From Caldilineae bacterium (lineage in GTDB: Bacteria > Chloroflexota > Anaerolineae > JAAEKA01), in contig JACKBK010000001.1 in assembly GCA_020634555.1 (NCBI GenBank), forward strand, positions 67,317 to 131,316: a stretch of 64,000 nucleotides of DNA, in the 5' to 3' direction. This document shows, one piece after another, positions 10,088 through 43,340 of the stretch. A program made the translations under genes and the position numbers. The first letter of the stretch is position 1, and the number at the start of each line of letters is the position of its first letter. The notes beneath the pieces are model-generated. The model saw nothing but the letters and a program-made list of their open reading frames with translations, ran no database searches and had not been told where the DNA came from.

Positions 10088-10774
10088 TTGGCCGTGACTG
10101 TGAACCAACCTGGCAGCGTTGCACTCATCCCCGCCTACAACGAGGCGGCGCGTATTACACCGGTGATCCGCGGCGTAATGGCGCATCTGCCCGCGCTGGT
10201 GGTGGACGACGGGTCGAAGGACGACACAGCCGCGGTGGCCGAGGCCGCAGGCGCGACCGTCCTTCGCCAGAACCCCAATCAGGGCAAGGGCGCGGCACTG
10301 CGAGCCGGTATGACCTGGGCGTTGGCGCAAGGTTACGGCACCGTTGTCACCCTTGACGCCGATGGACAACACGACCCGGCGGAAATACCGGCGTTTCTGG
10401 CGTGCTATGCTGCGACTACCGCCGACCTCATCATCGGCGCGCGCGATTTCGGGCAGATGCCTGCGGTACGGCGTGCAGCCAACACCATTGGCCGCTGGAG
10501 CTTCTCCTGGGCACTGGGGCAGCCGGTGCAGGACAACCAGTCGGGCTATCGTCTGCTGAGCCGGCGCATGATGGAAGCGATGCTCGGCAGCAGCGAGTCC
10601 GGCTTCGAGTTCGAGGTCGAGATGATCGTCACCTGCGTGCAGCGCGGCTACGCGCTGGACTGGGTGCCCATTCGTACCATCTACGCCGGCGAGACCAGCC
10701 ACATCGACCCATGGACCCACGCCACCAATTGGGTGCGGCTTGTGCGAGAGACACGGCGCAAGATGCGGAGTTGA
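10088..10774 (+). CDS. GT2 family glycosyltransferase, polyprenol-phosphate hexosyltransferase-like (Dpm1/Ppm1/GtrB-like)
   Basis: LIPAYNEAARI ... VVDDGSKDDTAAVA ... TLDADGQHDP (DxD) ... QSGYRLLSRR: canonical GT-A GT2 motifs of Dol-P/polyprenol-P sugar synthases. Confidence 0.8.
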   Translation: MAVTVNQPGSVALIPAYNEAARITPVIRGVMAHLPALVVDDGSKDDTAAVAEAAGATVLRQNPNQGKGAALRAGMTWALAQGYGTVVTLDADGQHDPAEIPAFLACYAATTADLIIGARDFGQMPAVRRAANTIGRWSFSWALGQPVQDNQSGYRLLSRRMMEAMLGSSESGFEFEVEMIVTCVQRGYALDWVPIRTIYAGETSHIDPWTHATNWVRLVRETRRKMRS

Positions 10775-23973: not shown

Positions 23974-24002
23974 TTGACAAAACTATTGTGCATGTATATA
24001 CT
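23974..24002 (+). promoter_or_regulatory. Sigma70 promoter of the suf operon (TTGACA-N17-TATACT)
   Basis: Exact TTGACA at 23974-23979 and TATACT at 23997-24002; implies a TSS near 24009 and supports sufR start at ATG 24049. Confidence 0.65.
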
Positions 24003-24048
24003 AAGTGGCGTTGGTCTGAACGACGATTTACTGAAAGAGCAATCGGCA

Positions 24049-24732
24049 ATGGCGACTCTGGGCATTCAAAACAATTCGACCCCCGCGGGACAGATTCTCG
24101 AATATCTCCTACGCAACACAACCGCCAGCATCAAAGATCTGGAAGACGCGCTGGGTGTGACCGCGACTGCGGTGCGCCAGCAGTTGGCCAGCCTGTTGGC
24201 TGAGGGGTTGATCATAATGACCAGAGAACGCCGGGGAGTCGGCCGGCCGCGCAACGTCTATACACTCACTAACCGGTCGCAGAGCCTGTTCGCCTGCTAC
24301 TCTGACGAGCTGGCGCTGGATCTGATCCACGAGTTGCTGGAGACCGAGGGCACGGCCAAGCTGCGCTACCTGCTCAGCCGCGTCGGCGACAAGTTGGCCG
24401 GGCAATACAGCCGCCAGATCAAAAGTGAGGCGGTGGGCGACCGGATCATCGAGTTGTCAGTTCTGCTGGACCGACGCGGCATCCGCGCCGATGTCGAGAA
24501 CGCCGACGGGGTTATCATCCTGCACGAATACAACTGCCCGTACCACGACCTTTCCTCCGTCCACCGCGATGTATGTGAGATGGAGCGCGAGACCTTTTCC
24601 CAGGTCCTGGGAGCGGACGTGACGCTGGGCAACTGCATCCACGACGGCCACAACAGTTGCCAGTTTGTGGTTGGGACAACTTCCGCCACTGGCGACGTTC
24701 GTCGCACAGCCAGCTACCAACTTACCAAGTAA
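24049..24732 (+). CDS. sufR: SufR-like winged-helix transcriptional regulator with C-terminal Cys-rich (Fe-S sensing) region
   Basis: N-terminal wHTH (IKDLEDALGVTATAVRQQLASLLAEGLII); C-terminal YNCPYHDL ... DVCEMERE ... GNCIHDGHNSCQF cysteine cluster; position immediately upstream of sufCBD. Confidence 0.6.
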   Translation: MATLGIQNNSTPAGQILEYLLRNTTASIKDLEDALGVTATAVRQQLASLLAEGLIIMTRERRGVGRPRNVYTLTNRSQSLFACYSDELALDLIHELLETEGTAKLRYLLSRVGDKLAGQYSRQIKSEAVGDRIIELSVLLDRRGIRADVENADGVIILHEYNCPYHDLSSVHRDVCEMERETFSQVLGADVTLGNCIHDGHNSCQFVVGTTSATGDVRRTASYQLTK

Positions 24733-24780
24733 CCAAGCTACCGAGCTACCAGAAAAAACATCTCAAGGAGAACTATTTTT

Positions 24781-25608
24781 ATGACCAGCGAGCTAGTCAT
24801 TCAGAACCTTCACGTCACCGTCAACGATGGTGAGAAGGAAGTGTTGAAGGGCGTCAATCTCACCATCCGCCAGGACGAGATCCACGCCTTGATGGGCCCC
24901 AACGGCTCTGGCAAGAGCACATTGGCCTATGCAATCATGGGCCACCCGCACTACACCGTTACCGAGGGCGATATTTTGCTGGACGGCGAGAGCGTCCTGG
25001 AGATGGAACCCAACGAGCGGGCGCGCAAGGGGCTGTTCCTGGCGTTCCAGTACCCGGTTGCCGTGCCAGGCGTCAGCATGGCTAACTTTCTGCGAACGGC
25101 AGTCAGCAACGTGCGCGGCTACACTGACCAGCAGCCGACATCCGAGGATGGACGGCCGGGCGTCATCGGCTCCAACCTGATGCCGATGCGCGATTTTCGC
25201 CGCGAGCTGCTGGACAAGATGGACGAGTACCACGTAGACCGCGACTTTGCCAAGCGCTACCTGAACGAAGGGTTCAGCGGCGGCGAGAAGAAGCGGGTCG
25301 AGATCTTGCAGATGGCCATGCTTCAGCCCAAGATCGCCATCATGGATGAGACGGACAGCGGGTTGGACATCGACGCGCTCCGTGTTGTCTCGGACGGTGT
25401 CAACAAGCTGGCCGGGACCGGCTTGGGTATCCTGCTTATCACCCACTACCAGCGCATTCTGGAGTACGTGAAGCCAGACTATGTCCACGTCTTCTACAAC
25501 GGCCGCATCGTGAGGAGCGGCGGCGCCGAGGTGGCGCATGAGCTGGAAGCGCGGGGCTACCAGTCGGTGCGCGAGGAGTTCGGCGAGCCGGAACTGGTTA
25601 CGGCATAA
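24781..25608 (+). CDS. sufC: Fe-S cluster assembly ATPase SufC
   Basis: LVIQNLHVTVNDGEKEVLKGVNLTIRQDEIHALMGPNGSGKSTL...; SufC-specific layout with an ABC signature and no transmembrane partner. Confidence 0.9.
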   Translation: MTSELVIQNLHVTVNDGEKEVLKGVNLTIRQDEIHALMGPNGSGKSTLAYAIMGHPHYTVTEGDILLDGESVLEMEPNERARKGLFLAFQYPVAVPGVSMANFLRTAVSNVRGYTDQQPTSEDGRPGVIGSNLMPMRDFRRELLDKMDEYHVDRDFAKRYLNEGFSGGEKKRVEILQMAMLQPKIAIMDETDSGLDIDALRVVSDGVNKLAGTGLGILLITHYQRILEYVKPDYVHVFYNGRIVRSGGAEVAHELEARGYQSVREEFGEPELVTA

Positions 25609-25751
25609 ATACTGTTTGGTATGTAGTAAGGTGGTAGATTGGCAAGTTTGTAAATTGGTCAATCGCCGATTATCAGGAAGACTTGCTTCACCTGAAATCT
25701 CACCAGTCTACCAATTCACCAAGCCACCAATCTACCCATTTGGAGGACCCA

Positions 25752-27167
25752 ATGGCAACAACAAGTGACCGCGAAGCGCTGGCTGGCGTAAAAGACGAAT
25801 ACCGCTATGGCTTCAGCATGCCGGAAGAGTACGTCTTCAAGTCGCGCAAGGGACTCGATCACGAGATCGTCGACCAGATTTCAGACCTGAAGAACGAGCC
25901 GGACTGGATGCGGGAATTCCGCCACCGTTCGCTGGACATCTTCCTTTCGAAGCCAATGCCGACCTGGGGCGCTGACCTGAGCGAGATCCAGTTCGACGAC
26001 ATCTATTATTACCTCAAACCGACCGAGAAGGCCGGCACGACCTGGGATGACATGCCGGATAGCATGAGAAACACCTTCGAGCGACTGGGCATCCCCGAAG
26101 CCGAGCGCAACTTTCTGGCAGGTGTGGGCGCGCAGTACGAGTCCGAGGTGGTCTACCACTCGCTGCAAGAGCAGTGGACCAAGCTGGGCGTCATCTTCCT
26201 GGACACCGACAGCGGCCTGCGCGAACACGAAGACATCTTCCGCGAGTATTTCGGCACGATCATTCCCCCGTCAGACAACAAGTTCGCCGCATTGAACTCG
26301 GCCGTCTGGTCGGGCGGCAGCTTCGTCTATGTGCCGGCTGGCGTGACGGTGAACATCCCGCTGCAAGCTTACTTCCGCATCAACGCCCAGAACATGGGCC
26401 AGTTCGAGCGGACGCTGATCATCGTCGAAGAGGGCGCCAACGTCCACTATGTCGAAGGCTGCACCGCGCCGATCTACGCCAGCGACTCGCTGCACAGCGC
26501 CGTCGTTGAGATCATCGTCAAGAAGAACGGCCGCTGTCGCTACTCGACCATCCAGAACTGGTCCAGCAACGTCTACAACCTGGTGACTAAACGCGCCACT
26601 GCGGCCGAAGGCGCCACCATGGAGTGGGTTGACGCCAACCTGGGATCCAAGGTGACGATGAAGTACCCGGCGGTCTACATGATGGGGCCGCGAGCGCACG
26701 GCGAGATCCTGTCCATCGCCTTCGCCGGCGAGGGACAAACGCTGGATGCGGGCGGCAAGGTCGTGCATGGCGCGCCCGACACCTCCTCCAAGATCATCTC
26801 CAAGTCGATCAGCAAGAACGGCGGGCGAGCCAGCTATCGCGGCCTGCTGAAGGTCGCCAAGGGCGCCACCGGCTCCAAGTCGACGGTGGTCTGCGACGCG
26901 CTGCTGCTGGATGACCGCAGCCGCTCCGACACCTACCCGTACATCGAGATCGACGAGCAGGATGTGCAGGTCGGCCACGAGGCCAGCGTCAGCAAGGTCA
27001 ACGAAGAGCAGATCTTCTATCTGATGAGCCGCGGCCTGGATGAAGAAGCAGCGGCCACCATGATTGTCAGCGGCTTTATCGAGCCGATGGTCAAGGAACT
27101 GCCCATGGAATACGCGGTCGAGATGAACCGTCTGATCCAGCTTCAAATGGAGGGCAGCATTGGGTAA
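25752..27167 (+). CDS. sufB: Fe-S cluster assembly protein SufB
   Basis: 471 aa; conserved SufB core ([13 protein letters not shown] ... [18 protein letters not shown] ... [24 protein letters not shown]); GGAGGA SD. Confidence 0.9.
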
Positions 27168-27311
27168 GGGAAACAAGTAGACAAGGAAACTGGTAAACAA
27201 CTAGACAAGTAGGCTGGAAAGCCGGGATACAACGGAACCAGAAGCAACTTGTATACCCTTGTCTACCTGTTTACCTGTCTACTTCCTCTCCTGCCCATTT
27301 GAGAGACAGAT

Positions 27312-28643
27312 ATGACTACACAAGTATTGACAAAAAGCGAAATTGGTTTGAACGGCGATGCCGTGGCGACGCTGTCGCAACAAAAACAGGAACCGACCTG
27401 GTTCACAGATCTGCGCCATCGTGCCTGGCGGTTCTTTGAGGAGATTCCGTGGCCGACTGGCAACGAAGAGGAGTGGCGGCGCACACGCCTGACCGGGCTG
27501 GACATCGCCGACTACAAACTAGCCAGCGGGACTCCAGAAGCAAGCAGCGATGCCGCCGACCTGGTCCCCTACTTGCGTGACGAACTTGACTCGATCAATG
27601 CTGCCGCCGCGTTGGTAACTGAGGACGGCACGGTGCGCTATCGCGGGGTTGACGCCGGTCTCGCGGCCAAAGGCGTGATCTTCACGGATCTCGACACCGC
27701 TATTCGCCAGCACCCGGAGCTGATTCAGACCTACTTCATGACCAATAATGTCGCGGTTGACGCCAACAAGTTCACCGCGCTGCACGCCGCGTTTGTTACC
27801 GGCGGCGCGGTGCTTTACGTGCCGCGCAACGTGCAGGTTGAGTTGCCGTTCCACGGCGTGACCGCGGTCAGCGGCGGCGTGGCGGACTTTGCCCACACGT
27901 TGATCATCGCCGAGGAGAACAGCCAGGTTACCTACGTGGACGACCTGATCAGCCAGGACAGCAACGCAACCTTCCACAGCGGCGTGGTGGAGATCTTCGC
28001 CGGCCCCGGCGCTGTTGTGCGCTACATGCACGGCCAGGACTGGAACACCAACACCTGGCACTTCAGCACCCAACAGGCGCAGATGCTGCGCGACGCCCAG
28101 CTTACCTGGATTCTCAGCTCCTGGGGCAGTCGGCTGAGCAAGATCAACCTGGAGATGCAATTGCTGGAGCGCGGCGGCCACGGCGAACTGTTGGGCCTCT
28201 ACTTCCCCAGCGGCCGCCAGCACATCGATCATCACACCATGCAAAACCACTTCGCCGACAATTGCACCAGCGACCTGCTCTTCAAGGGCGCGCTGCGCGA
28301 CCGGGCGAGATCGGTCTATTCCGGCAGCATCAAGGTCTGGCCAGCAGCGCAGAAGACTGACGCCTATCAGAAGAACAACAATCTGGTGCTGGATCGGCGT
28401 GCGCGCGCCGATAGCATACCTGGGTTGGAGATCGAAGCCGACGACGTGCGCTGCACCCATGGCGCCACCGTCAGCAAGATCGAGCCCGAGTACCTGTTCT
28501 ACCTCATGGCGCGCAGCCTGACCAAGTTCCAGGCCGAGCAGATGATTGTCACCGGCTTCTTCGAGGAAGTGCTCAACCGCGTCCCGGTCGAAGGCGTGCG
28601 CAACAAACTTGAACAGGTGATCGCTCGTAAGATCCACATGTAG
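27312..28643 (+). CDS. sufD: Fe-S cluster assembly protein SufD
   Basis: 443 aa; paralogous to SufB in the C-terminal beta-helix region; follows sufB. Confidence 0.85.
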   Translation: MTTQVLTKSEIGLNGDAVATLSQQKQEPTWFTDLRHRAWRFFEEIPWPTGNEEEWRRTRLTGLDIADYKLASGTPEASSDAADLVPYLRDELDSINAAAALVTEDGTVRYRGVDAGLAAKGVIFTDLDTAIRQHPELIQTYFMTNNVAVDANKFTALHAAFVTGGAVLYVPRNVQVELPFHGVTAVSGGVADFAHTLIIAEENSQVTYVDDLISQDSNATFHSGVVEIFAGPGAVVRYMHGQDWNTNTWHFSTQQAQMLRDAQLTWILSSWGSRLSKINLEMQLLERGGHGELLGLYFPSGRQHIDHHTMQNHFADNCTSDLLFKGALRDRARSVYSGSIKVWPAAQKTDAYQKNNNLVLDRRARADSIPGLEIEADDVRCTHGATVSKIEPEYLFYLMARSLTKFQAEQMIVTGFFEEVLNRVPVEGVRNKLEQVIARKIHM

Positions 28644-31386: not shown

Positions 31387-31668
31387 ATGGAGCTAACGAT
31401 GAATGGACTAACCACCCTCACACTGGTAACTGGCAGCACTGTGACAATACCTGTGCCCGCAGAACTGCTGTATCGACAAGTTGAAGTGACCATCGTGCCT
31501 GTTGAAGAGAGTGGAGATTGGCGAGACTTACCACCAAACGGAACGGCGGTAGCTGCGCTATTGCAGGAGTTGGCAACGGCTGGCGGCGTTCAGAGCATTG
31601 AGGATCCAGTTGTCTGGCAACGCGAACAGCGGCGCGACAGGCCACTTCCGGGGCGTGAACGTCAATGA
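31387..31668 (+). CDS. Type II antitoxin (VapB-like) partner of the downstream PIN toxin
   Basis: Small ORF whose TGA overlaps vapC ATG (ATGA); likely true start ATG 31399 (GGAG SD); low GC like vapC. Confidence 0.5.
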   Translation: MELTMNGLTTLTLVTGSTVTIPVPAELLYRQVEVTIVPVEESGDWRDLPPNGTAVAALLQELATAGGVQSIEDPVVWQREQRRDRPLPGRERQ

Positions 31669-32060
31669 TTCTGCTTGACTCCAATATCATTATCTATGCA
31701 ACTCAACCAGAGCATTCATTTCTCTTGGAGATGATGCGAGACCGTTATGTGTTTGTTTCCACGATCACCAAAGTGGAAGTATTGGGGTATCACAAGCTGA
31801 CGACCACAGAACGTAGTTCATTGGAGAATTTTTTCCGCAACACGTTTCAGTTACCAGTTACGGCTCCGATCATCGACCGCGCGATCCATATTCGCCAGAA
31901 GCGCAAGATTGGACTTGCCGATTCCTTGATTGCTGCAACCGCGCTGGTCCACTCTGTTTTATTGGTCACGCGAAATACAGTTGACTTCATTTGGATACCG
32001 GATCTTCAAGTGCTGAACCCATTCCAAGATCAAATCCCCAACGATGAAGCCAGTGCTTAG
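31665..32060 (+). CDS. vapC: PIN-domain ribonuclease toxin VapC
   Basis: MILLDSNIIIYA (Asp at position 5) ... ADSLIAATALVHSVLLVTRNTVDF: canonical PIN acidic residues; about 42% GC versus about 65% background. Confidence 0.8.
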   Translation: MILLDSNIIIYATQPEHSFLLEMMRDRYVFVSTITKVEVLGYHKLTTTERSSLENFFRNTFQLPVTAPIIDRAIHIRQKRKIGLADSLIAATALVHSVLLVTRNTVDFIWIPDLQVLNPFQDQIPNDEASA

Positions 32061-33735: not shown

Positions 33736-34146
33736 TATCTCGCGATGATTGCACGGCGCTTTGCCGGATCGACAGATGCGATTCCATCAGCGCCTATTAC
33801 GAACAGGTTTCGTTCTCAGACGGGCCGACGTATTATAGCGGTCAGAGCAGGTTCCAGCAATTGCTGTCGCGCTTTACCCTTAGCCAAAGAGGTGGAAGTC
33901 ACCGACCTAAGGACAGAGCGTTGCTTAACTGCCCATAGCGAGCCTACAAGATCGTCTTCCCTCGTTTCCCATCCTTCCCATTCCCACTCTTTCCACACCC
34001 TCCCCACCACCTCTCCACAGCTTCTCCATAGGCAACTGCTATACTGCATGGTAGATAAGCAAAACGCCTGCTGCGATGCAGGCGACATCAATAGATCAAA
34101 GCGTTCCGGTCGAAGATCGGGCGCAGCCACCAGGAGAGGTAACACC

Positions 34147-34635
34147 ATGAACAAGAACTGGAAACGTGTAGGAATGACAGCAGCGGTGCTGGCGATGTCG
34201 GCACTGATGGTCTTCGCCGGAGCGGCGTTCGCCCAAGGCAACGGTCCCGGCATCAGCGCAGGGCAGGCGGCTGGTCAGGTGAACCAGTATGGCAGCGGCA
34301 CCGGCACTGGTACCCCGATCTACGGGCAGGCGAACCAATACGGCAGCAGCGCAGGACAGACTGCTGGGCAGTTGAACCAATACGGCAACGGCAGCGGCAC
34401 CGGCACACCGGTCTACGGACAGGCGAACCAATACGGCAACGGCAGCGTTGGCGCCGGCTACGGCAACGGAACCTGTGACGGCACCTGCACCGGCACACCC
34501 GGCCAGAGCGGCAGTGGCCCGAACTGGAGCGACGCCGACGGCGACGGCACGTGCGACAACTACGGCACCATGCAGCAGCAGAACATGCGTGGCAGCCAGG
34601 GCGGCGGCATGATGAACGGACGCGGCAACCGCTAA
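34147..34635 (+). CDS. Secreted Gly/Gln/Asn-rich low-complexity repeat protein
   Basis: GGAGAGG SD; signal peptide MNKNWKRVGMTAAVLAMSALMVFAGAAFA; repeats GQ(A/V)NQYG(S/N)G(S/T)GTGTP(I/V)YGQANQYG ...; Cys-containing GTCDGTCTGTPG ... DGDGTCDNYG. Confidence 0.5.
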   Translation: MNKNWKRVGMTAAVLAMSALMVFAGAAFAQGNGPGISAGQAAGQVNQYGSGTGTGTPIYGQANQYGSSAGQTAGQLNQYGNGSGTGTPVYGQANQYGNGSVGAGYGNGTCDGTCTGTPGQSGSGPNWSDADGDGTCDNYGTMQQQNMRGSQGGGMMNGRGNR

Positions 34636-34662
34636 GAACTCAGGAAGTCCTCCTTCACCAAA

Positions 34663-34692
34663 GAGGCCGGGCATTTGCCCGGCTTCTTTGAT
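34663..34692. terminator. Bidirectional intrinsic terminator between convergent genes
   Basis: gccgggca-tt-tgcccggc flanked by T-rich runs on both strands. Confidence 0.6.
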
Positions 34693-34743
34693 TCGGCAGC
34701 GGCTGATCAGACGGCTTCGATGCGATGTAATCTGCGTCCCGCG

Positions 34744-36240
34744 TCACATCGCCGCCTGGTGGCTGTCGATCTTGCTCTTGTGGGTGTTGGCGTTGTAGGT
34801 GACCACCTTGCCGGCGTAGCGTTCCTTCACCGCGCGCAGCGGGCCGACGTTGTCCACCAACCGCCCGCCGGCGCGCTTGGCCGGCCCTTCCCAGTAATAG
34901 CCAAACTGCTGGTTCATCCAGCGCCAGCGCAGCAGCCCGTAGTACGGTTTCAACAGCCAGTGTCCCTGGCTGCGCCCGACGTAGAGGATGTCGTTTATCT
35001 CACACATCGCGCTGGCCTCAGACTCGCTGACCCAGGGCGTGTTGCCGCGGTTCAGGTCGAACTCAGCCCAGCCCTCCTGGTTGTCGGGCGGCACGTAGCC
35101 GCGCGACAGCGCGTCCGGCCAGAGCGGCGTTCCCGGATACGGCATGTAGACGCAGACCGAGCAGCGCGCGTTGGCGTTGATCCGGCACAGCCGGTCGATC
35201 AGTTCCAGCGTGATACGCCGTTCCTCCGGTCCTTCCTCCGGCAGCCCGACGATGAAGCTCAGGTTGGCCTCGATGTGCGGCGCATGCTCGGCCAGATTGC
35301 GCACACCTATCTCGATCCACTCGGCTTTCTGGTCCTTGGCAATGGAGTCCAGGACGGCCTGGCTGCCGCTTTCCGCGCCGATGTTGACCCACTGGCAGCC
35401 GGTCTCCACCATCCACCGGATAAACTCCGGCTTGAGCAACTGCACCCGTACCTGCCCACTCCAGGGCATATTCACTTTTTCTACCAGCCGCTGCATCGGC
35501 TTGATGCGGCCGAAGAGATAGTCGTCGGCGTAGTCCACCGCGTTGATGCCGTGGTGCTTCTTGAGCCAGTTGATCTGGTCGACGATGAACTGGTCGCTGT
35601 GCTGGCGCCAGGTGCGCTTCATGACGATCTCGTTGTAGCAGAACGCGCAACGGAACGGACAGCCGCGGCTGATATAGACCGGGATAGCGCGGTCGTACGG
35701 CCCGGATTGCAGCAAATACGCCTCGACATCAGCCAGCAAATCCCAGCGCGGCGAGAAGTCGTCCAGGTTCTGGATGAAGGGCCGCTCCATGTTGACCACC
35801 GGCTGGCCGGCCGCGTCCTTCCAGGCCAGCCCGCGCACCGCTGCCCAGTTGCGCCCGTTGCCCAGCTCGCGGGTGAACTCCTGCGCCGTCACCTCGCCCT
35901 CGTTGATGACGACGAAATCGATGAAGCACTCGCGCAACACCTCCTCCGGCATGATGGTCGCGTGGACGCCGCCCCAGACGGTGGTGATGCCCAACTCATG
36001 GACTCGTTTGGTGGCGTCGATGGTGGCTTTGAGCTGCGGACCGGTGATGGTGCTGAAGCCGACCCACAGCGGCCGCTCACGCTCGACGGCGCGCACAAAC
36101 TCGTCCACCTTGTCCTCTTCCTCGTGCCAGATCTGGACAGAATAGCCCTCCTGCATCAGCGCGTCGGCCACGTACATGATGCCGAAGGGCGGATACATGT
36201 CGCGCTCGTTGCGGAAGTTAACCATCATGATGTCGGTCAT
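34744..36240 (-). CDS. B12-binding domain-containing radical SAM protein (class B rSAM, methyltransferase-like)
   Basis: N-terminal cobalamin-binding-like domain; CxxxCxxC cluster motif ISRGCPFRCAFCYNE; about 500 aa as for class B rSAM enzymes; GAGGTGA SD before ATG 36240. Confidence 0.85.
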   Translation of the reverse strand: MTDIMMVNFRNERDMYPPFGIMYVADALMQEGYSVQIWHEEEDKVDEFVRAVERERPLWVGFSTITGPQLKATIDATKRVHELGITTVWGGVHATIMPEEVLRECFIDFVVINEGEVTAQEFTRELGNGRNWAAVRGLAWKDAAGQPVVNMERPFIQNLDDFSPRWDLLADVEAYLLQSGPYDRAIPVYISRGCPFRCAFCYNEIVMKRTWRQHSDQFIVDQINWLKKHHGINAVDYADDYLFGRIKPMQRLVEKVNMPWSGQVRVQLLKPEFIRWMVETGCQWVNIGAESGSQAVLDSIAKDQKAEWIEIGVRNLAEHAPHIEANLSFIVGLPEEGPEERRITLELIDRLCRINANARCSVCVYMPYPGTPLWPDALSRGYVPPDNQEGWAEFDLNRGNTPWVSESEASAMCEINDILYVGRSQGHWLLKPYYGLLRWRWMNQQFGYYWEGPAKRAGGRLVDNVGPLRAVKERYAGKVVTYNANTHKSKIDSHQAAM

Positions 36241-36334
36241 CGTGTCACCTCGGGGTGTCGTCCAGGTAGATAGGTAGACAGGTAGACGAGTAAGCAAGTA
36301 GACAGGTAGTCAAGTGGACAGGTGGCAGGTGCAG

Positions 36335-37867
36335 CTACGGTCTTGGCACGTAGATGGTTTGTGGTCGCACGACCAGCCCGTTGAGCGTCGCGGGCGCGTC
36401 TTGTGGTGAAAGCTGGCGCAACGGGACGTAGTTGGCGTCGATCAAGGCCATCAGCGCCGGTTCGGTTTCGAAGTACGGGCTTTCGTCCGAGATGATCCCG
36501 GCATACTCGCGGTTCTGGATGCGGGCGATGAGATCAGCCGGCAGCGGATCGCGGCCGCGCCAGCGGGCATGCCACAGGGCCTGGATCTGTGCCGAAGGCT
36601 GCTTGCCGGCTTTGAGCGCATAGAATGGGTGCATCATCACCAGCACCTCGCCCGGCATCGCTGCCAGGTCAGCAATAAACCGGTCGCCGGCCTGCCGCAT
36701 CTCGGTAGTCGGCCTGTAGTGCTGCACCGGCGCGGGCCGGATCAATCGCCCGACAGGGCTGGCCAGTGTCAGGCAAAACTGGAGAAGAACGGCCAACTCC
36801 AGCGCCGGTTTGGCCCAATGGCGGGCAGGTTGCCGCTCCAGCTCACGCCACACCAGCGCCGGCGTCAGACAGAGCAGGGAATAAGCCTGCATCAACTGGT
36901 TGCGGGCGCCGCCTACCGAAGTCCGCCCGGCCACACTGGCCACAATCGCCGCGGCGATGAACAACAACCACGGCTGTTCGCGCAGCAAATACCTGCGGCA
37001 ACGGATCAGCAGCAGCGCGGCTAGGATCACAAACATTCCGGCCAGCACGCCTATGTCGCCAAACACTTCGGCGCCCAGCGTGTACAGCGCCCGCTGCCAC
37101 TCGGTCGGACTGGCGAACGCGATGCCGAAAACGTAGGTGGTGAACCAGCCCTGGCTGGCAGCGTTCAGAGCCGCGGTCGGCACGGCTACCAACAACACAA
37201 ATGCGCCCGTGAACACCAGCCCGCGCCGGCCCTCCAGCGCCAACAGATACCCTGCCGCGATCACGCCGAAATAAAGCCCGTTCTGCTTGGCCAGATAGGC
37301 CAGCGCCAACAGCAGCGCGGCTGCAAGCTGCCCCGCTGCCGACCTGCGCCAGTAGATCACCGCTGCCAGACCGGCCACTGTCAGCGCAACGAACAGGGCA
37401 TCGACCCGGGCCAGATCATACCAACCGCCCACGATCCGATAGCCCGCCAGGTACAGCGCCCCGCCAACCAGGGCGATCAGTTTGCTGCGACTCTCGCGCC
37501 AGCCGATGAGTGCGATCAGGCTTGCGGTGGCCAGGGTTGCGATCAGCGAAAGCAACCGCAGCGGCGCCAGCGATGGACCGGTGATCGCCAACAGCGCCCC
37601 GCCGATCCAGGAATATAAGGGCATGTAAACGTGCGGCGCAAACTCAGCCGAAGGTGCGACATAGATCGGCAACCCGTTGGCCACTCGCCACGCCTGCATC
37701 AGCATACCGTCCTCGACAAAGTCGATGTCGAAGGGATAGGCGATGCGTTCGATGGCGGTAATCAAGGCAGCGGCTGCCAACGCCACGGCAACCACCACCA
37801 TTATCCATCGGATAGCTGCCGCTGGTGCAGACGTTGTCCGAACAACCCGACGCGGGAGTGATGCCAT
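36335..37867 (-). CDS. GT-C fold glycosyltransferase, GT39/PMT_2-like (ArnT/PMT superfamily) integral membrane protein
   Basis: About 10 N-terminal TM helices with an acidic first-loop motif (DIDFVEDG) and a C-terminal soluble domain; start uncertain (ATG 37867 or 37966). Confidence 0.6.
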   Translation of the reverse strand: MASLPRRVVRTTSAPAAAIRWIMVVVAVALAAAALITAIERIAYPFDIDFVEDGMLMQAWRVANGLPIYVAPSAEFAPHVYMPLYSWIGGALLAITGPSLAPLRLLSLIATLATASLIALIGWRESRSKLIALVGGALYLAGYRIVGGWYDLARVDALFVALTVAGLAAVIYWRRSAAGQLAAALLLALAYLAKQNGLYFGVIAAGYLLALEGRRGLVFTGAFVLLVAVPTAALNAASQGWFTTYVFGIAFASPTEWQRALYTLGAEVFGDIGVLAGMFVILAALLLIRCRRYLLREQPWLLFIAAAIVASVAGRTSVGGARNQLMQAYSLLCLTPALVWRELERQPARHWAKPALELAVLLQFCLTLASPVGRLIRPAPVQHYRPTTEMRQAGDRFIADLAAMPGEVLVMMHPFYALKAGKQPSAQIQALWHARWRGRDPLPADLIARIQNREYAGIISDESPYFETEPALMALIDANYVPLRQLSPQDAPATLNGLVVRPQTIYVPRP

Positions 37868-38051
37868 GATAGTCAATAACCCGCCAGAGGGCAAGCGTCG
37901 CGCTCCGTCGGCAATTAGAGCGATAGACTTCGGAAGTCGCCGAAGCAAGGAGGAAGCATCTCCCACCGCGTTAGGCTGGTTGTTACGTAGAACCGGCGAC
38001 TTCCGAAGTCTATGGCTGAAAAGTTACTTGTGGGTCGTGCTTCAGTGCTAC

Positions 38052-38891
38052 CTACGAACTGGCCGGTGCGATCATCACCCGAAACCCGGTGCCCTGGGCG
38101 TGGTAGACGCGGCTGGGAATGGTGATACTGCACGCGCTGCGGCAGTTGCAGGCGGTGTGCTGCGGGCTGTAGCCCCACGAACCGCCCTTCACCACATGGT
38201 ACGCCGGCACATCCGGGTTGTACAAACTCGTCGTCCACTCCCAGACGTTGCCGGCCATATCATAACAGCCAAAGGGCGAAACGTTCTGTGGGATTGCGCC
38301 CACTGGCAGCGGTGAACCGATACGCCAGTACCAGCCGCTGCGGGCCAACTCGACTTCTGGCCTGACAAGCAGGTTGCGTTGGTAGTAGTCCAGGCCCAGC
38401 GTATGCGTCGCCTTCAGATCAGCCAGTTCCGGCCGAGGCAATGCTTCCCCCCAGGGAAAAGTGCGTCCATCCACGCCCCTCGCCGCTTTCTCCCACTGAT
38501 ATTCATCGGGCAGCGTGCAGCGCAGTCCAAGCTGTGCCGACAGCCAGCGACAGTACGCGAACGCATCCTCCTGCGTCACATCCACAATCGGATAGTTGGC
38601 CATTTCGGGCGGATAGGTATCGCACGGGGCAAATCGCCGCAGCCATCCCCTCGGCGCAGCCACAATCCGCCACCATGCGCCGATCCATTCGTAGCCCGTG
38701 TCGTCCAGAAACACCTTCCACTCGCGGTACGTCACGGGATGGCGCGCCAGCCAGAACTCGTCCAGCGTCACCACCTGCCGCGGCCGGGGCGGCGGTGCCA
38801 TTTCGAGTCGCTCGTAGGTCACCTCAGGGCCGTAGATGAACGGACCGGCGGGGACGTGGACGAAACTCTCAGGAACAGTGGACCGGTTCAC
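38052..38891 (-). CDS. Formylglycine-generating-enzyme (FGE)/SUMF1-sulfatase-modifying-factor domain protein
   Basis: FVHVPAGPFIYG ... VTLDEFWLARHPVTYREW ... YRLPTEAEWE-like stretch (TLPDEYQWEKAARG) ... GNVWEWTTS ... KGGSW; GTG 38891 overlaps the flippase stop (GTGA). Confidence 0.75.
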   Translation of the reverse strand: MNRSTVPESFVHVPAGPFIYGPEVTYERLEMAPPPRPRQVVTLDEFWLARHPVTYREWKVFLDDTGYEWIGAWWRIVAAPRGWLRRFAPCDTYPPEMANYPIVDVTQEDAFAYCRWLSAQLGLRCTLPDEYQWEKAARGVDGRTFPWGEALPRPELADLKATHTLGLDYYQRNLLVRPEVELARSGWYWRIGSPLPVGAIPQNVSPFGCYDMAGNVWEWTTSLYNPDVPAYHVVKGGSWGYSPQHTACNCRSACSITIPSRVYHAQGTGFRVMIAPASS

Positions 38892-40165
38892 ATCGCCCGC
38901 CAAATCAAGCTTAGTCGGAACTCCGGCCGCAGGCGCACTGCCAACACAATCGCCTGCACCAGAACGGCGATGCTCAACGCCAGCGCCGTGCCGGTCGCGC
39001 CATAGCCCGGAGCCAGCGCCAGCGTCCCGGCCAGAAATACCAGCAGGGCAACAAAAATCGCGCTGAACTTGACTGCGCCGCGGCCCGACACGGTGGCGAC
39101 AACGTTGGCGGCCCAGACGATGACCGCCGGCGGCATAGCCAGGCTGATCCAGCGCAGGACCGGCGCAGCCGCGGCGAAATCCTTGCCGAACACCAGCGGC
39201 GCTGCCAGACCGGCCAGAAGCCAAACAGCCACGGTAGCCGCAACGGTGATCAGCAGGCCGGCGCGCATAAAGCTGCCCAGCCGGCGCTGCATCTCGTCCA
39301 TGCACCCCTGGGCGCGCAACGCCGTCAACGCCGGAATCAGGCTCTGTGCGAACTGGCTGACCGTGACGTAGACCATCAGATACATGCCGATGGCCAGGCT
39401 GATGAAGCCGACCTGTGCACTGTTGCCGGTGAGCGCCTCTACCAGCACCGGTCCGGAGCGGTAGAGCGCCACCGCGGCCAGATTGGCCAGAAAGAAGCCG
39501 AGGCCGGCCAGCAGAAAAGGTTTAAAGTAGCGCCATTCGACGCGCAGCTCGCGGCCCAGCCAGTCGTCGCGTGCCCACCACAGCCCCAGCCCCGCGAAGA
39601 GCAGCTCCATCAGCACCAGAGCCAGCAGCGCGCCGGTGAACCCCAACAGCGGGTAGAGCGCCAGCAGCGCAGCCAGCGTCACCCACTGCCGCCATGCCTG
39701 CTCCGTCATCCACGCGCCGACGCGGTTCTGCGCCAGCGCGTATTGGAACGGCACCCACGATGCCACCCGCAACACCACCATCAGCCCGGCCATCAGCGCC
39801 CACAGGGGAATCATCCAGCTCGCCAGCAGCATGGATGCGGCGGCCGTCGCGACAAAGCAGAGCATCGACGCCGCCAGCGAAAATGCCAGCGTGCGCATGT
39901 AGAGCTTCCTGGCCTCGTCGGGCGCCATGGTAGGCACAAAACGGCCAAACACATCCAGTGTGCCCAGGTCGGCCAAAATCGCGCCGAGAAATGTCAGCGA
40001 CAACACGAACGAAAAACGCCCGTAGTCCTCGACGCCCAGCAGCCGCGGCAGGATCACCACCGCAGCCAGCGAGCCGGCGATCTGGGCTACCTTGTGCGCC
40101 GAGATCACCGACGTGTTCGAGACCAGCCGGCGGTGCGGCGTGTTGGCAGGAGCGGAATCACTCAT
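38888..40165 (-). CDS. MOP-superfamily flippase / polysaccharide biosynthesis protein (Wzx/MurJ-like)
   Basis: 425 aa, about 12-14 TM helices, N-terminal VSNTSVISAHKVAQIAGSLAAVVILPRLLG typical of the PF01943/PF13440 polysaccharide-biosynthesis family. Confidence 0.65.
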   Translation of the reverse strand: MSDSAPANTPHRRLVSNTSVISAHKVAQIAGSLAAVVILPRLLGVEDYGRFSFVLSLTFLGAILADLGTLDVFGRFVPTMAPDEARKLYMRTLAFSLAASMLCFVATAAASMLLASWMIPLWALMAGLMVVLRVASWVPFQYALAQNRVGAWMTEQAWRQWVTLAALLALYPLLGFTGALLALVLMELLFAGLGLWWARDDWLGRELRVEWRYFKPFLLAGLGFFLANLAAVALYRSGPVLVEALTGNSAQVGFISLAIGMYLMVYVTVSQFAQSLIPALTALRAQGCMDEMQRRLGSFMRAGLLITVAATVAVWLLAGLAAPLVFGKDFAAAAPVLRWISLAMPPAVIVWAANVVATVSGRGAVKFSAIFVALLVFLAGTLALAPGYGATGTALALSIAVLVQAIVLAVRLRPEFRLSLIWRAM

Positions 40166-40181
40166 TGCGAGCAGCAGAAAG

Positions 40182-43100
40182 TTAGTTTTGGACGGTCACA
40201 GACACAGTCGTACTTGTCTCGGCCCCGCTGACGCCGCGGACGGTCAGCAGCAGGCTGTAGACGCCGGTGGGCAGGCCGGTGGTGTTCCATGTGCCCAGCG
40301 CATCGAAACTGGGGGTGAAATAAACCGGCTGGTCGGGGCGGACCGGCAGGAATCCCTCCGGTCCGGAGTATTGCAACGTGTAGCTGGCGAAATCAGGCCC
40401 GGCCGCCACGCCAGAGATGCTGACCAGACCGCTTATCAGATTGCCATCGGCCGGCTGCGTGATCACTGCGATCAGGTTGGGCAGCGGCGGAGTTGCCGTC
40501 GGCGGCTCGACAAGGACGGTTGGCGTTGTGGTTGGCTCGGCCACCGGCGTCGCGGTGCTGGTCGGTGAAGGCAGCCAGGTCGCAGTCGGCGTCGCCGACG
40601 GCAGCACGACCGGCGTCGCGGTCGGCGTCGGTGTTGCGGTGTCCAGGGCTGTGGCAGTAGGTGAAGCCGTCGGTCGCGCGACAGTGACGCGCGCCGGCAT
40701 GGACTCGTAGCGCCGCCCAGAACGATCCACTGCTACCACCCGCAGCAGATGCGGGCCATCCACCGGCAGCCGCGCGGTGTCCCACCACGCCAGGTCGCCG
40801 TTCTCCACCGGGTTGTAGACCGGCCCTGCCACGATGCCCCAGGCGCCAGGACTGAACGACTCGCCATACTCCACCAGGTAATGGTCAAAATCAGGAGCCG
40901 TCGCGCTGCCGACGATACGCACCAGCCCCGCCAGGATCTGGCCATCGTACGGTTGGTAGATCGCGACGTTGGCGCTGGCCGCAGTGGCAACCGGAGTCAC
41001 GCCGGGCGCGGCGCCTGGCGGCAACTGGTCAGCCGCAAAGACCTCCATCCTGCGCTGATCTGATGGGCAGGACGCGTCAGCCGCCGCGCCGGTGGTCGTA
41101 CAGATTTCCACCTGCTGAATGCCGTCGGGAACGGCGAAATCGAGCTTGGGCTGCTCAGCCAGCGCGGCGCGCATGAAGCGGTTCCAGATCGGCCCGGCGC
41201 CGGCAATGCCCGACAACCGCGGGTTCATCGGCGTCCCGTCCGCGTTGCCCACCCAGACGCCCGTCACCAACTGCGGCGTGTAGCCAATCGTCCAAATATC
41301 GCGCACGTCGTTGGTTGTCCCGGTCTTGACGGCTGCGGGCCGGTCCAGCACCAGCGACGAGTTCGCGCCAAAGGTTGGCGACCGAGCCTCGTTGTCCTTG
41401 AGAATGTGGGTCAGCAGGTAAGCGTGCTGCGCCAGCGCGGCCCGCTGCTGCCGGGGCTGCTGGATCAGCGAGTCGGGTGTGACCGGCGCATCCCGGCAGG
41501 CTGCCGGCAGATCAGATGTCTCTAACCGTTCCAACACGTTGCCCTGCGCATCGAGCACACACAGAATCGTCGTTGGCGCTGCCAAAACGCCGCCGTTAGC
41601 CAGCGCGCCGTAGGCGCTGGTCATCTCCAGCAGCGTCACCTCACCGCCGCCCAGCGTCAGCGACAGTCCGTAGAGCGGGTGGCCCGGCTGCGTCAGCGTC
41701 GCCATGCCGAAGCGGTCGGTGACTTGCAGCAACGCATCCACACCCACGCTTCGCAGCGCTTTGACGGCCGGCACGTTGTAGGAGTTGGCCAACGCTGTGC
41801 GCACGCTGACGCGCCCGTGCTCCTTGCCGTCGTAGTTGGTCGGCACATAGGGTGGCCGGCCCGGCCCGTCGTCGAACTCGGTGCGCACGTCGTCGATCAG
41901 GGTCGCCGGCGTCCACCAGTCCTCGGCCCGCTCGAAGGTCGCCAGGTAGGTGAAAGGCTTGATCGTCGAGCCGGGCTGGCGGGGTGAGATAGCCACATTG
42001 ACCTGCCCGCTGATCTCGGCGTCGAAGAAGTCAGCCGACCCGACCAACGCCTTGATCTCGCCGGTGCGCGGGTCGATAGCCACCAGCGCGCCGTTGCTGA
42101 CGTTCTGGCCGCTCAGTTCGGCCACCCCCTGGCTGACCAGTTGCTCGGCCTGCTGCTGCATGGCGCTGTCGAGGCTGGTGTAGACCTGCAAACCGCCGTT
42201 GTAAAGCAACCCCGGGCCGTAGAGTTGCTCAAGCTGGCTGCGCACGTAGGTGACAAAATGCGGTGCTCGACTCAGCTGTACGTCGTCCAGTCCTTGTCCG
42301 TGATAGGTCAACGGCTCGGCCCAGGCCGCGTCAGCTTCAGCCGCGCTGATGGCCCCGTTCTCCACCATCAGCCGCAGGACATCAGCCTGGCGGTCCTTGG
42401 CGGCCTCCGGGTTTTGCAGCGGATCGTAGGTGGCAGGCGCTTGCGGCAAACCGGCCAGCAGAGCCGCCTCGGCCAGCGTTAGCTCGGCGGCCGGCTTGTT
42501 GAAGTAGAGACGCGCCGCCGATCCCGCGCCGTAGGCCAGGTTGCCGTAGTTGATCTGGTTGAGGTATAGCTCCAGAATCGTGTCCTTGTCGTATCGACGG
42601 GTGATCTCCGCTGCCAGCACGGCTTCCTTGATCTTGCGGCTGACGGTGCGTTCCGGCGACAGGAAAACCAGCTTGACGAGTTGCTGGCTGATGGTGCTGG
42701 TGCCGACCACCGGGCCGCTGTTCTGCACGGCGCGGAAGATGGCGCGCGCCAGCCCGGCCGGATCGACGCCGGGGTGGTTGTAGAAGTTGGCGTCCTCGGT
42801 GGCGATGGTGGCGGCGACGAGGTAAGGCGAGATGTCGTCCAGCGCGACGTGCCGTCGCAGCCCTGCCGCAGGGTCGTTGGGCGCCAGCGGCGCTTGCAAC
42901 AGCGCACCGTTGCGGTCGAGGATGCGGGTGTTCTCGCCCTGGCTGGCACGCGTGATCAACTCACTGGCCGGCGGCAACACTGTAGCGATGCCCGCGTAGC
43001 CCAGCGCAAACAGGGCCAGGCCAAGCAGCGCGACAATAAGGAACAAAAACACGCCCATCAGCACACCGTTGGCGCAGCCGCTGCCGCTGGCCTGCCGGCG

Positions 43101-43217
43101 CGAACGCGGTGTCTGGACGCTGCCAGCCGGCTGTCCATAGCCCGGTGGGGGCGGAGGCAGCGGGCGTCGCGGCTGCCTCGGTGGTTGCGGCTTTGGGGAA
43201 GAAGGTTGATTGCTCAT
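40182..43217 (-). CDS. Class A penicillin-binding protein (PBP1A-type bifunctional transglycosylase/transpeptidase) with Pro-rich N-terminal tail and C-terminal Thr/Pro linker plus two repeated beta-domains
   Basis: GT51 motifs (EDANFYNHPGVD; QQLVKLVFL ... RKIKEAVLAAEITRRYDKDTILELYLNQINYG); TPase STIKPFTYLA, SYN, KTGTTND; C-terminal repeated about 90-aa domain (GLVRIVGSATAPDFDHYLVEYG / GLVSISGVAAGPDFASYTLQYSG). Confidence 0.9.
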   Translation of the reverse strand: MSNQPSSPKPQPPRQPRRPLPPPPPGYGQPAGSVQTPRSRRQASGSGCANGVLMGVFLFLIVALLGLALFALGYAGIATVLPPASELITRASQGENTRILDRNGALLQAPLAPNDPAAGLRRHVALDDISPYLVAATIATEDANFYNHPGVDPAGLARAIFRAVQNSGPVVGTSTISQQLVKLVFLSPERTVSRKIKEAVLAAEITRRYDKDTILELYLNQINYGNLAYGAGSAARLYFNKPAAELTLAEAALLAGLPQAPATYDPLQNPEAAKDRQADVLRLMVENGAISAAEADAAWAEPLTYHGQGLDDVQLSRAPHFVTYVRSQLEQLYGPGLLYNGGLQVYTSLDSAMQQQAEQLVSQGVAELSGQNVSNGALVAIDPRTGEIKALVGSADFFDAEISGQVNVAISPRQPGSTIKPFTYLATFERAEDWWTPATLIDDVRTEFDDGPGRPPYVPTNYDGKEHGRVSVRTALANSYNVPAVKALRSVGVDALLQVTDRFGMATLTQPGHPLYGLSLTLGGGEVTLLEMTSAYGALANGGVLAAPTTILCVLDAQGNVLERLETSDLPAACRDAPVTPDSLIQQPRQQRAALAQHAYLLTHILKDNEARSPTFGANSSLVLDRPAAVKTGTTNDVRDIWTIGYTPQLVTGVWVGNADGTPMNPRLSGIAGAGPIWNRFMRAALAEQPKLDFAVPDGIQQVEICTTTGAAADASCPSDQRRMEVFAADQLPPGAAPGVTPVATAASANVAIYQPYDGQILAGLVRIVGSATAPDFDHYLVEYGESFSPGAWGIVAGPVYNPVENGDLAWWDTARLPVDGPHLLRVVAVDRSGRRYESMPARVTVARPTASPTATALDTATPTPTATPVVLPSATPTATWLPSPTSTATPVAEPTTTPTVLVEPPTATPPLPNLIAVITQPADGNLISGLVSISGVAAGPDFASYTLQYSGPEGFLPVRPDQPVYFTPSFDALGTWNTTGLPTGVYSLLLTVRGVSGAETSTTVSVTVQN

Positions 43218-43340
43218 GACGGGTGTTAGACGAACAAAAGAGCAGAATTGTTCAAACCGCTTGTCTGAGGCGGCCACTTGGTCTATAATGCGCTCAGTGC
43301 CATCAACGCCGCAGGTGCGGCTGTCACAAAGGAGTGTTAC

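Follow-up and report, generated by a model that had tools for sequence, protein, structure and literature searches.

Organization of the locus

The locus described here lies in a stretch of 64,000 nucleotides (about 62% G+C) from the genome of a Caldilineae bacterium of the class Anaerolineae, phylum Chloroflexota (contig JACKBK010000001.1 of assembly GCA_020634555.1, forward-strand positions 67,317 to 131,316). The whole 64-kb stretch is called the window, and loci from the genomes and metagenomes of relatives are identified by L-numbers. Five consecutive genes on the minus strand of the window encode, in the order of transcription, a penicillin-binding protein 1A (PBP1A), a flippase of the multidrug/oligosaccharidyl-lipid/polysaccharide (MOP) superfamily, a protein with the fold of the formylglycine-generating enzyme (FGE), a membrane glycosyltransferase of the GT-C class, and a radical S-adenosylmethionine (SAM) enzyme with a B12-binding domain. 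An earlier reading of the sequence, hereafter the original prediction, described the five genes as one envelope cluster, and their open reading frames (ORFs), domains, and positions were all confirmed. Comparison with relatives indicates that the real unit comprises four genes, those of the MOP flippase, the FGE-fold protein, the GT-C enzyme, and the B12-type radical SAM enzyme (34744–40165), and that this block represents a reduced version of a larger cluster found only in Anaerolineae. The radical SAM protein of the window is identical to P0001, a 498-aa protein from a MAG labelled 'Caldilineae bacterium'. The features of the locus are:

40182–43277, minus strand: PBP1A, 1031 amino acids (aa), identified by TIGR02074; outside the conserved unit
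38888–40165, minus strand: MOP flippase, Wzx-type, 425 aa, polytopic; opens the conserved block of four genes
38052–38891, minus strand: FGE-fold protein, cytoplasmic, 279 aa; Pfam FGE-sulfatase domain
36335–37867, minus strand: ArnT-like GT-C membrane glycosyltransferase, 510 aa, assigned from an AlphaFold2 (AF2) model and Foldseek
36263–36331, minus strand: tandem array of an 8-nt unit in the leader of the radical SAM gene, found with Tandem Repeats Finder (TRF)
34744–36240, minus strand: B12-domain radical SAM enzyme, orphan, 498 aa, cytoplasmic; closes the block
34659–34692, no strand assigned: hairpin, likely a bidirectional terminator, from folding energy and a terminator scan
34147–34635, plus strand: secreted repeat protein rich in Gly, Gln, Asn, and Thr, 162 aa; outside the conserved unit

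The stop codon of the MOP gene (TGA, 38890–38888) overlaps the GTG start codon of the FGE-fold gene (38891–38889) inside the sequence ATGTGA, as had been noticed before, and the two genes are translationally coupled by this overlap. The gap between the PBP1A and MOP genes, read from the sequence, is 16 bp. The gap between the FGE-fold and GT-C genes measures 184 bp if the latter starts at the ATG at 37867, which is the start supported by orthologues, and 85 bp if it starts at the GTG at 37966. The GT-C and radical SAM genes are 94 bp apart. A promoter-like hexamer pair at 37894–37866, overlapping the ATG of the GT-C gene, was rejected as a chance match, since the scan gave 2 sites where 1.5 were expected.

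The radical SAM gene and the repeat-protein gene converge, and the bidirectional terminator proposed between them was recovered as a strong hairpin at 34659–34692. Its 14-bp stem has folding energies of -27.6 and -28.6 kcal/mol for the respective strands (z of about -5.3), none of 200 shuffled sequences folded equally well, and the terminator scan picked the same element. The hairpin, which lies beyond the region syntenic with relatives, is likely a bidirectional terminator. Neither an Rfam scan nor a tRNA scan of the entire window gave a match, and a cobalamin riboswitch was likewise not found.

A four-gene unit conserved in Anaerolineae

The alignment of the window by blastn to L004–L006, the loci of the three closest relatives, showed DNA similarity spanning only 34744–40168. 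These limits run from the stop codon of the radical SAM gene to the start of the MOP gene and leave both the PBP1A and repeat-protein genes outside. Upstream of MOP, where the window has PBP1A, L004–L006 carry genes for a DUF5693 membrane protein, a family 2 glycosyltransferase (GT2), and a PRK07208-type FAD oxidoreductase. A PBP1A gene next to MOP was absent from these three loci and from every other locus mapped. The repeat-protein gene, too, was not linked to the block in any locus. The inclusion of PBP1A in the unit is thus contradicted, and both PBP1A and the repeat protein are neighbours of the block by chance.

The proteins of the window were mapped onto the radical SAM loci by tblastn, and ORFs in the loci of relatives were called by GC3-GC2 score with start trimming and then clustered. 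Among the 67 loci with at least 1.5 kb of sequence upstream of the radical SAM gene, 47 contain an orthologue of the FGE-fold gene (56–87% identity). It is located upstream of the radical SAM gene on the same strand in 46 of the 67 loci, and within 500 bp in 23. Orthologues of MOP (31–88% identity) are found upstream of the FGE-fold and radical SAM genes in 18 loci. The GT-C gene lies between the FGE-fold and radical SAM genes only in L004–L006 and is absent from that spot in most relatives; it is nearby on the other strand in L020, L029, L030, L047, and L070, and nearby or inside the cluster also in L086 and L088. An apparent fusion of the FGE-fold and radical SAM genes in L079 is an artefact of a run of masked N that joins two genes.

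Searches anchored on the other genes led to the same neighbourhood. With GT-C as the anchor, L086 has NTP_transf_5, DUF5693, FGE-fold, and radical SAM genes on one side and the FAD oxidoreductase gene on the other, and the GT2 was also returned; in L088 the GT-C gene is embedded in a lasso operon. With the FGE-fold protein as the anchor, metagenomes yielded just ten sequences at least 57% identical, after which identity drops to 36% or less. The radical SAM gene follows immediately downstream in six of these ten loci; L093, L095, and L097 lack it in the 0.9–1.7 kb of downstream sequence, and the contig of L096 is too short to judge. Because the radical SAM, GT-C, and FGE-fold anchors each recover the same neighbourhood, the linkage of the four genes is better explained by function than by mere adjacency. 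The synteny that was to be checked in relatives therefore holds for the four genes as linkage, which is recovered from three anchors and in at least seven different gene orders and persists across taxonomic orders despite rearrangement.

The radical SAM enzyme and its FGE-fold partner

The radical SAM protein contains a B12-binding domain (PF02310, E=6e-20) followed by a Radical_SAM domain (PF04055, E=6e-16), and C195, C199, and C202 of its CxxxCxxC motif do not vary among 16 orthologues. The protein is cytoplasmic, and hydropathy shows no hydrophobic segment. The AF2 model (predicted local distance difference test score, pLDDT, 83) matches TsrM, MgmA/QCMT, OxsB, CysS, TokK, and AprD4 with template modelling (TM) scores of 0.57–0.66, at sequence identities of only 14–20%. 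Its conserved C-terminal part of about 100 residues has no equivalent among these enzymes. By its domains and modelled fold, the protein is of the class B type and may use cobalamin. AprD4 has the same fold and does not use cobalamin, so that the fold is no guarantee of cobalamin use. The closest solved enzyme by sequence is the protein glutamine C-methyltransferase MgmA/QCMT (9CCB; PMC12931638).

Orthologues of the radical SAM protein, 59–94% identical, were found in 80 genome loci, nearly all labelled as Chloroflexota (Caldilineales, Ardenticatenaceae, Promineifilaceae, and 'Anaerolineales'), and one representative stands for all of them in a library that was clustered at 50% identity. Beyond these orthologues, the nearest full-length relatives are 37–40% identical and have no informative names. 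No NCBIfam model came near its cutoff: the matches reached about 120 bits at best against cutoffs of 251–578, with MJ_1487 first (122 bits, cutoff 251), HpnJ second (120.8 bits, cutoff 577.6), then BchE (117 bits, cutoff 481), and ApyD, a radical SAM enzyme of RiPPs (peptides that are made by ribosomes and modified after translation), at 111 bits. Close homology therefore does not place the enzyme in any characterised pathway, which agrees with the original prediction. The radical SAM and FGE-fold genes appear to form tight orphan orthogroups confined to Anaerolineae.

The FGE-fold protein consists of an FGE domain only (PF03781, 143.5 bits, E=1e-41, covering residues 12–275 of 282). It contains neither a hydrophobic segment nor a signal peptide and is hence cytoplasmic. 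Its best sequence matches in the Protein Data Bank (PDB) are ToxD, EgtB, and CalU17. The catalytic, copper-binding cysteine pair of FGE, which follows GGS(Y/W), corresponds to C336 and C341 of the human enzyme. When the motifs were aligned by hand, the equivalent positions after KGGSW were Y241 and another residue that is not cysteine. H232, H245, and the R251-S-A-(C)-S motif are invariant among orthologues, and C254 is nearly so. A true FGE/SUMF1 was therefore rejected: the fold is present, the cysteine pair is absent, and no sulfatase is encoded alongside, a sulfatase domain being missing from the called genes of every locus inspected. An EgtB/OvoA identity was rejected as well, since the protein has no N-terminal DinB domain with the three-histidine iron site and scores 57 bits with TIGR03440 against a cutoff of 360. 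The oxidation of cysteine or other thiols that had been suggested for this protein thus loses its basis.

Three loci without an FGE-fold gene in the flank (L016, L017, and L019) have genes for a PhyH-family Fe/2-oxoglutarate dioxygenase and the PRK07208 FAD oxidoreductase directly upstream of the radical SAM gene. This pair may take over the role of the missing FGE-fold protein.

The GT-C enzyme and the flippase

The GT-C protein scores 22.5 bits with PMT_2, under the cutoff of 26.1, and a sequence profile searched against PDB sequences returned only noise and no solved GT-C enzyme. Most of its homologues carry PF13231 and are named GT39 by NCBI. The AF2 model, built with 22 homologues (pLDDT 88.9), has ArnT (5f15, TM score 0.58) as its best Foldseek match, followed by AglB, AftA, ALG12, AftD, and Pmt4. 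The acidic motif expected in the first extracytoplasmic loop is present as YPxDxDFVEDG after the first transmembrane helix; Y44, P45, and E52 are invariant in the 22 homologues, and D49 is kept in at least 90%. The protein is thus a true GT-C enzyme whose nearest known structure is that of ArnT. The fold supports the GT-C class assigned originally.

The MOP protein has hydrophobic segments throughout and matches Polysacc_synt (PF01943) with 47.6 bits against a cutoff of 28.2. A MurJ-like flippase of lipid II, an idea prompted by the neighbouring PBP1A, was rejected because the match is to Polysacc_synt, that to SpoVB is weak, none to MurJ was found, and the orthologues stand in a glycan cluster. 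The GT2 at 10088–10774, which the original prediction offered as the supplier of a polyprenol-phosphate sugar, is a real gene; it belongs to a different family from the GT2 of the cluster and lies 24 kb away, which speaks against that role.

The wider cluster in relatives

The four genes are accompanied in relatives by recurrent partners: a DUF5693 membrane protein (44 loci), NTP_transf_5 (36), an HPr-kinase-related protein (29), a GT2 with C-terminal transmembrane helices (23), an ABC-2 permease (23) with its ATPase (21), an endonuclease/exonuclease/phosphatase (EEP) protein (21), and the PRK07208 FAD oxidoreductase (15). Three GT-C-like families are present in 8–9 loci each, and an AMP-binding enzyme, a PhyH dioxygenase, an S9 peptidase, and DUF6027 occur occasionally. 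At least one glycan or export gene was found in 31 of the 33 loci that extend at least 8 kb on both sides; these 33 contain DUF5693 in 24 cases, a GT-C-like gene in 18, GT2 in 15, ABC-2 in 13, and MOP in 12. None of the genes for DUF5693, the cluster GT2, the FAD oxidoreductase, NTP_transf_5, or lasso peptide synthesis is present in the 64-kb window. Searches of the literature for DUF5693, for FGE-sulfatase with a B12 radical SAM enzyme, and for lasso genes with such an enzyme found no description of the cluster.

Outside Caldilineales, genes typical of lasso peptide clusters (PqqD, Transglut_core3, and Asn_synthase) are interleaved with the cluster in 20–23 genome loci. The lasso-type set, together with the HPr-kinase-related and EEP genes, is interleaved in L002, L030, L039, L046, L050, L059, L069, and L070, and further in L082, L086, L088, L092, L094, and L098, from Promineifilaceae, Ardenticatenaceae, and related metagenome-assembled genomes (MAGs). 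In L030 and L088, the GT-C gene is positioned between the lasso B2 and C genes. ORFs upstream of PqqD are not conserved, and the clustering of all ORFs of 25–90 aa in the surroundings of the lasso genes yielded nothing but shadow ORFs of the radical SAM, kinase, PqqD, cyclase, and EEP genes, so that no lasso precursor was recognised.

Some loci contain additional genes. Between the lasso B2 and C genes of L098 (12396–12959, plus strand) lies a gene for a predicted lipoprotein of 187 aa that combines an LVSCG lipobox with a linker rich in Ala, Thr, and Pro and, at the C-terminus, a cupredoxin-like C-x2-H-x2-M motif; this lipoprotein could be a candidate target of glycosylation. A trio of membrane-protein genes (DUF2157, DUF4401, and GDYXXLXY) is inserted between the FGE-fold and radical SAM genes in the Caldilineales-type loci L001 and L080, and an AMP-binding enzyme is encoded between MOP and the FGE-fold protein in L001, L080, L008, and L089.

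Proposed function of the block

The analysis establishes the identities of the genes, the folds and the cytoplasmic or membrane locations of their products, and the linkage; from these a pathway can be proposed, every chemical step of which is inferred. With moderate confidence, we read the four-gene block as a trimmed module for the tailoring, flipping, and transfer of a lipid-linked sugar. The block probably builds or decorates a surface glycoconjugate, a reading that is reasonable because the neighbourhood is rich in GT2, GT-C-like, MOP, ABC-2, and DUF5693 genes. To this extent, the surface glycoconjugate or protein glycosylation pathway of the original prediction stands for the four genes; PBP1A, the repeat protein as a substrate, and thiol chemistry of the FGE-fold protein drop out of it.

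We infer a polyprenyl phosphate as the carrier, which a GT2 would charge with a sugar at the cytoplasmic face of the membrane. This would be the membrane-anchored GT2 of the cluster in relatives, encoded outside the 64-kb window in the present genome; that the cluster GT2 has C-terminal transmembrane helices and matches GT2 families supports the step. The soluble radical SAM enzyme would then tailor the lipid-linked, or nucleotide-activated, sugar in the cytoplasm, by radical C-methylation or by a rearrangement or deoxygenation of the HpnJ or AprD4 type. The FGE-fold partner would contribute to this step, as would the PRK07208 FAD oxidoreductase or a PhyH dioxygenase in relatives. The MOP protein would flip the carrier, and the ArnT-like GT-C enzyme may finally move the modified sugar to an extracytoplasmic acceptor, which could be a wall polymer, a protein, or a peptide. 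AprD4, one of the structural matches of the radical SAM protein, provides a precedent for a B12-domain radical SAM enzyme acting on a sugar. Another is the conversion of bacteriohopanetetrol (BHT) to its cyclitol ether by hpnI, hpnK, and hpnJ (PMC5462960).

Several observations weigh against this reading. The pathway is incomplete locally, since the cluster GT2, the FAD oxidoreductase, and DUF5693 are not encoded in the window, and the clusters yielded no recognisable genes for an initiating phosphoglycosyltransferase, for nucleotide sugars, or for a polymerase. The FGE-fold gene is not within the flank in 20 of the 67 radical SAM loci, and the GT-C gene stands alone in L087. The solved relatives of the radical SAM protein include the protein, peptide, and small-molecule methylases MgmA, TsrM, CysS, and TokK; therefore, homology does not indicate sugar chemistry. 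The interleaving with lasso genes outside Caldilineales fits a peptide-centred function equally well.

The lipid-linked reading can be extended to accommodate the lasso genes. The radical SAM, FGE-fold, GT-C, MOP, DUF5693, GT2, and FAD oxidoreductase proteins might form an Anaerolineae-specific system that makes an undescribed radical-modified sugar, C-methylated or ring-rearranged, on a polyprenyl carrier. In the lasso-interleaved lineages, a peptide of the lasso type or a component of the wall would receive this sugar, giving a hybrid of RiPP and lipid-linked-glycan pathways with a new enzyme pair. We offer this extension as a speculation that is unlikely to be correct.

Alternative explanations

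The radical SAM and FGE-fold proteins could instead modify a lasso-type peptide that GT-C, the flippase, and the ABC-2 transporter glycosylate and export, the block in the window being a remnant of such a system. Lasso, HPr-kinase-like, and NTP_transf_5 genes flank or interleave the radical SAM, FGE-fold, and GT-C genes in the 20–23 genome loci and in L086, L088, L092, L094, and L098, and the insertion of GT-C between lasso genes in L030 and L088 also suits a peptide substrate. An S9 prolyl oligopeptidase recurs upstream of the FGE-fold gene, and the affinities of the radical SAM protein to MgmA/QCMT and ApyD point the same way. Lasso clusters with a kinase and a nucleotidyltransferase that give phospho-glycosylated peptides are known (PMC9266682), which counts in favour of this explanation. 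However, the 64-kb window contains no lasso, PqqD, or kinase gene, and all Caldilineales-type loci (L001, L004–L011, L014, L020, and L089) are likewise free of such genes, with radical SAM proteins that are still 74–94% identical. The conservation of the radical SAM (59–94%) and FGE-fold (56–87%) proteins is unusually high for enzymes that tailor RiPPs. The search for a conserved precursor ORF found none, the conserved small ORFs all being shadows of known genes, and the spacer between the FGE-fold and GT-C genes is not conserved between the window and L004–L006, and therefore hides no peptide gene. We consider peptide tailoring, the foremost of the alternatives, unlikely.

Modification of a membrane lipid is a still less probable function. 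The radical SAM enzyme would methylate or cross-link a lipid or polyprenol, as HpnP, HpnR, Tes, and GrsA do, and the neighbouring proteins would handle a glycolipid head group. All partners are membrane-associated, and NCBIfam gave partial matches to HpnJ (120.8 bits), the B12 radical SAM enzyme of ladderane lipids (85 bits), and HpnR (74 bits). These matches are far under the family cutoffs, no genes of lipid or isoprenoid synthesis are present in any locus, and the structural neighbours of the radical SAM protein are not lipid enzymes, which makes this function quite improbable.

The five-gene envelope operon of the original prediction, with PBP1A as a member and the repeat protein as the substrate of glycosylation, has very little left in its favour. 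The five genes are co-directional with short gaps, including the 16 bp that separate PBP1A from MOP. The repeat protein is secreted and has a high content of Ser, Thr, and Gly, and PBP1A carries a long C-terminal linker rich in Pro and Thr, which resembles the segments glycosylated by PMT-type enzymes. Neither the PBP1A nor the repeat-protein gene is syntenic, even in relatives with radical SAM proteins that are 92–94% identical, and the orthologues of the repeat protein are encoded on other contigs in a different conserved context.

That the genes are unrelated and merely adjacent is hardly credible: the 184-bp and 94-bp spacers on either side of GT-C could hold separate promoters, and GT-C is not between the FGE-fold and radical SAM genes in most relatives, but the linkage emerges with each of three independent anchors and persists in at least seven gene orders.

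Flanking genes and other features of the window

PBP1A contains Transgly and Transpeptidase domains and scores 524 bits with TIGR02074. Its C-terminal part of about 330 aa (40182–41200, minus strand), past the transpeptidase domain, consists of long Pro/Thr/Ala-rich linkers and two further domains without a Pfam match.

The secreted repeat protein that had been described as convergently encoded is present at 34147–34635 on the plus strand. Its N-terminus resembles a signal peptide by eye and in hydropathy, with n and h regions ending in AFA/Q, and its gene includes a 93-nt (31-aa) repeat in 2.1 copies with 84% matches. About 20 homologues (P0122–P0139), mostly of about 240 aa, have a central helical domain with weak similarity to DUF2680 that is missing from the window copy. 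The copy in the window is a shortened member of a secreted family of Caldilineales; it has shed the DUF2680-like domain, carries the GQANQYG...TP(I/V)YG unit in duplicate, and retains the C-terminal CDGTC...DADGDGTCDNYG motif. In L084 and L085, the orthologue adjoins genes for LysE, His_Phos, and a response regulator/histidine kinase pair. L084 originates from the same MAG as L005, where the radical SAM block is on a different contig. The place of the repeat protein beside the radical SAM block is specific to this genome and is therefore no evidence that the protein is a substrate; the location, once taken as a hint of that role, lends it no support.

The leader immediately upstream of the radical SAM start codon is occupied by an array of YTACYTGY (36263–36331; consensus CTACCTGT, about 7.6 copies, TRF period 8, score 59). 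The array is found at the same place in L004 (9919–9974) and L005 (9943–9966), with differing copy numbers, and an array also occurs in L070 (2808–2831). Elsewhere in the window, the motif is present only at 27170–27285, in the Fe-S assembly operon, as an inverted array pair that separates sufB from sufD, where 5 matches compare with 0.01–0.06 expected. YTACYTGY may be a shared regulatory element of Fe-S-related genes or a small dispersed repeat. The suf operon (HTH regulator, SufC, SufB, and SufD) is followed by a rhodanese gene (23974–28643, plus strand). The plus strand of the window also encodes a DNA methylase with a RAMA domain (8123–9247) and a pair of ORFs (31387–32060), the second of which (31665–32060) looks PIN-like by eye.

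Comparison with known systems

Anaerolineae are filamentous bacteria that abound in sludge from wastewater, in sediments, and in soils, and next to nothing is known of the chemistry of their envelope. A set of genes kept together across the sampled orders, around radical SAM and FGE-fold proteins that lack characterised close relatives, points to a modification of a sugar or peptide that is not yet known. It may involve a new type of reaction for class B radical SAM enzymes and for the FGE fold. If the interleaving with lasso genes is functional, it would tie RiPP biosynthesis to glycosylation from a lipid carrier. For the window itself, the unit is corrected from five genes to four, and the proposed substrate is removed.

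The non-Caldilineales relatives resemble the clusters of the lasso peptides paeninodin and pseudomycoidin in having PqqD, B2, C, HPr-kinase-like, and NTP_transf_5 genes, whereas the window has none of these. We know of no lasso biosynthetic gene cluster that contains a GT-C, MOP, DUF5693, FGE-fold, or B12-type radical SAM gene.

The radical SAM protein shares with TsrM, MgmA/QCMT, TokK, CysS, OxsB, and AprD4 an N-terminal Rossmann domain of the B12 type, a radical SAM barrel, and the CxxxCxxC motif. It differs from the solved class B enzymes in sequence, with 14–20% identity, and its orthogroup is at most 40% identical to anything else. The FGE-fold protein has a full-length FGE-sulfatase domain like those of FGE/SUMF1, EgtB/OvoA, ToxD, and CalU17. 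Unlike FGE/SUMF1 and EgtB/OvoA, it lacks the cysteine pair, DinB, and a signal peptide, and it is partnered with a radical SAM gene.

The hopanoid enzymes HpnI, HpnK, and HpnJ offer a parallel in logic, since a membrane lipid receives a sugar from a GT2, after which a B12-domain radical SAM enzyme remodels the lipid-linked sugar (PMC5462960). The radical SAM protein of the block is not an orthologue of HpnJ (120.8 bits, cutoff 577.6), the vicinity contains no hopanoid genes, and the GT-C, MOP, and FGE-fold proteins have no counterpart in the hopanoid pathway.

Three-component systems of extracytoplasmic glycosylation include GtrA/GtrB/GtrC, ArnC/ArnEF/ArnT, CsbB/GtcA/YfhO, and Ppm1/Pmt. The block is similar to these systems in having a GT-C enzyme with an ArnT-like fold and a flippase, to which the cluster of relatives adds a membrane-anchored GT2. 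Its flippase is a Wzx-type MOP protein rather than GtrA or a protein resembling small multidrug-resistance transporters, and the polyprenyl-phosphate GT2 is not encoded with the block, the cluster-type GT2 being absent from the 64-kb window. The cluster further differs in adding the B12-type radical SAM enzyme, the FGE-fold protein, an FAD oxidoreductase or PhyH dioxygenase, DUF5693, and NTP_transf_5. We rate the system as a surface glycosylation system of the flippase and GT-C kind with an orphan tailoring pair of radical SAM and FGE-fold proteins.

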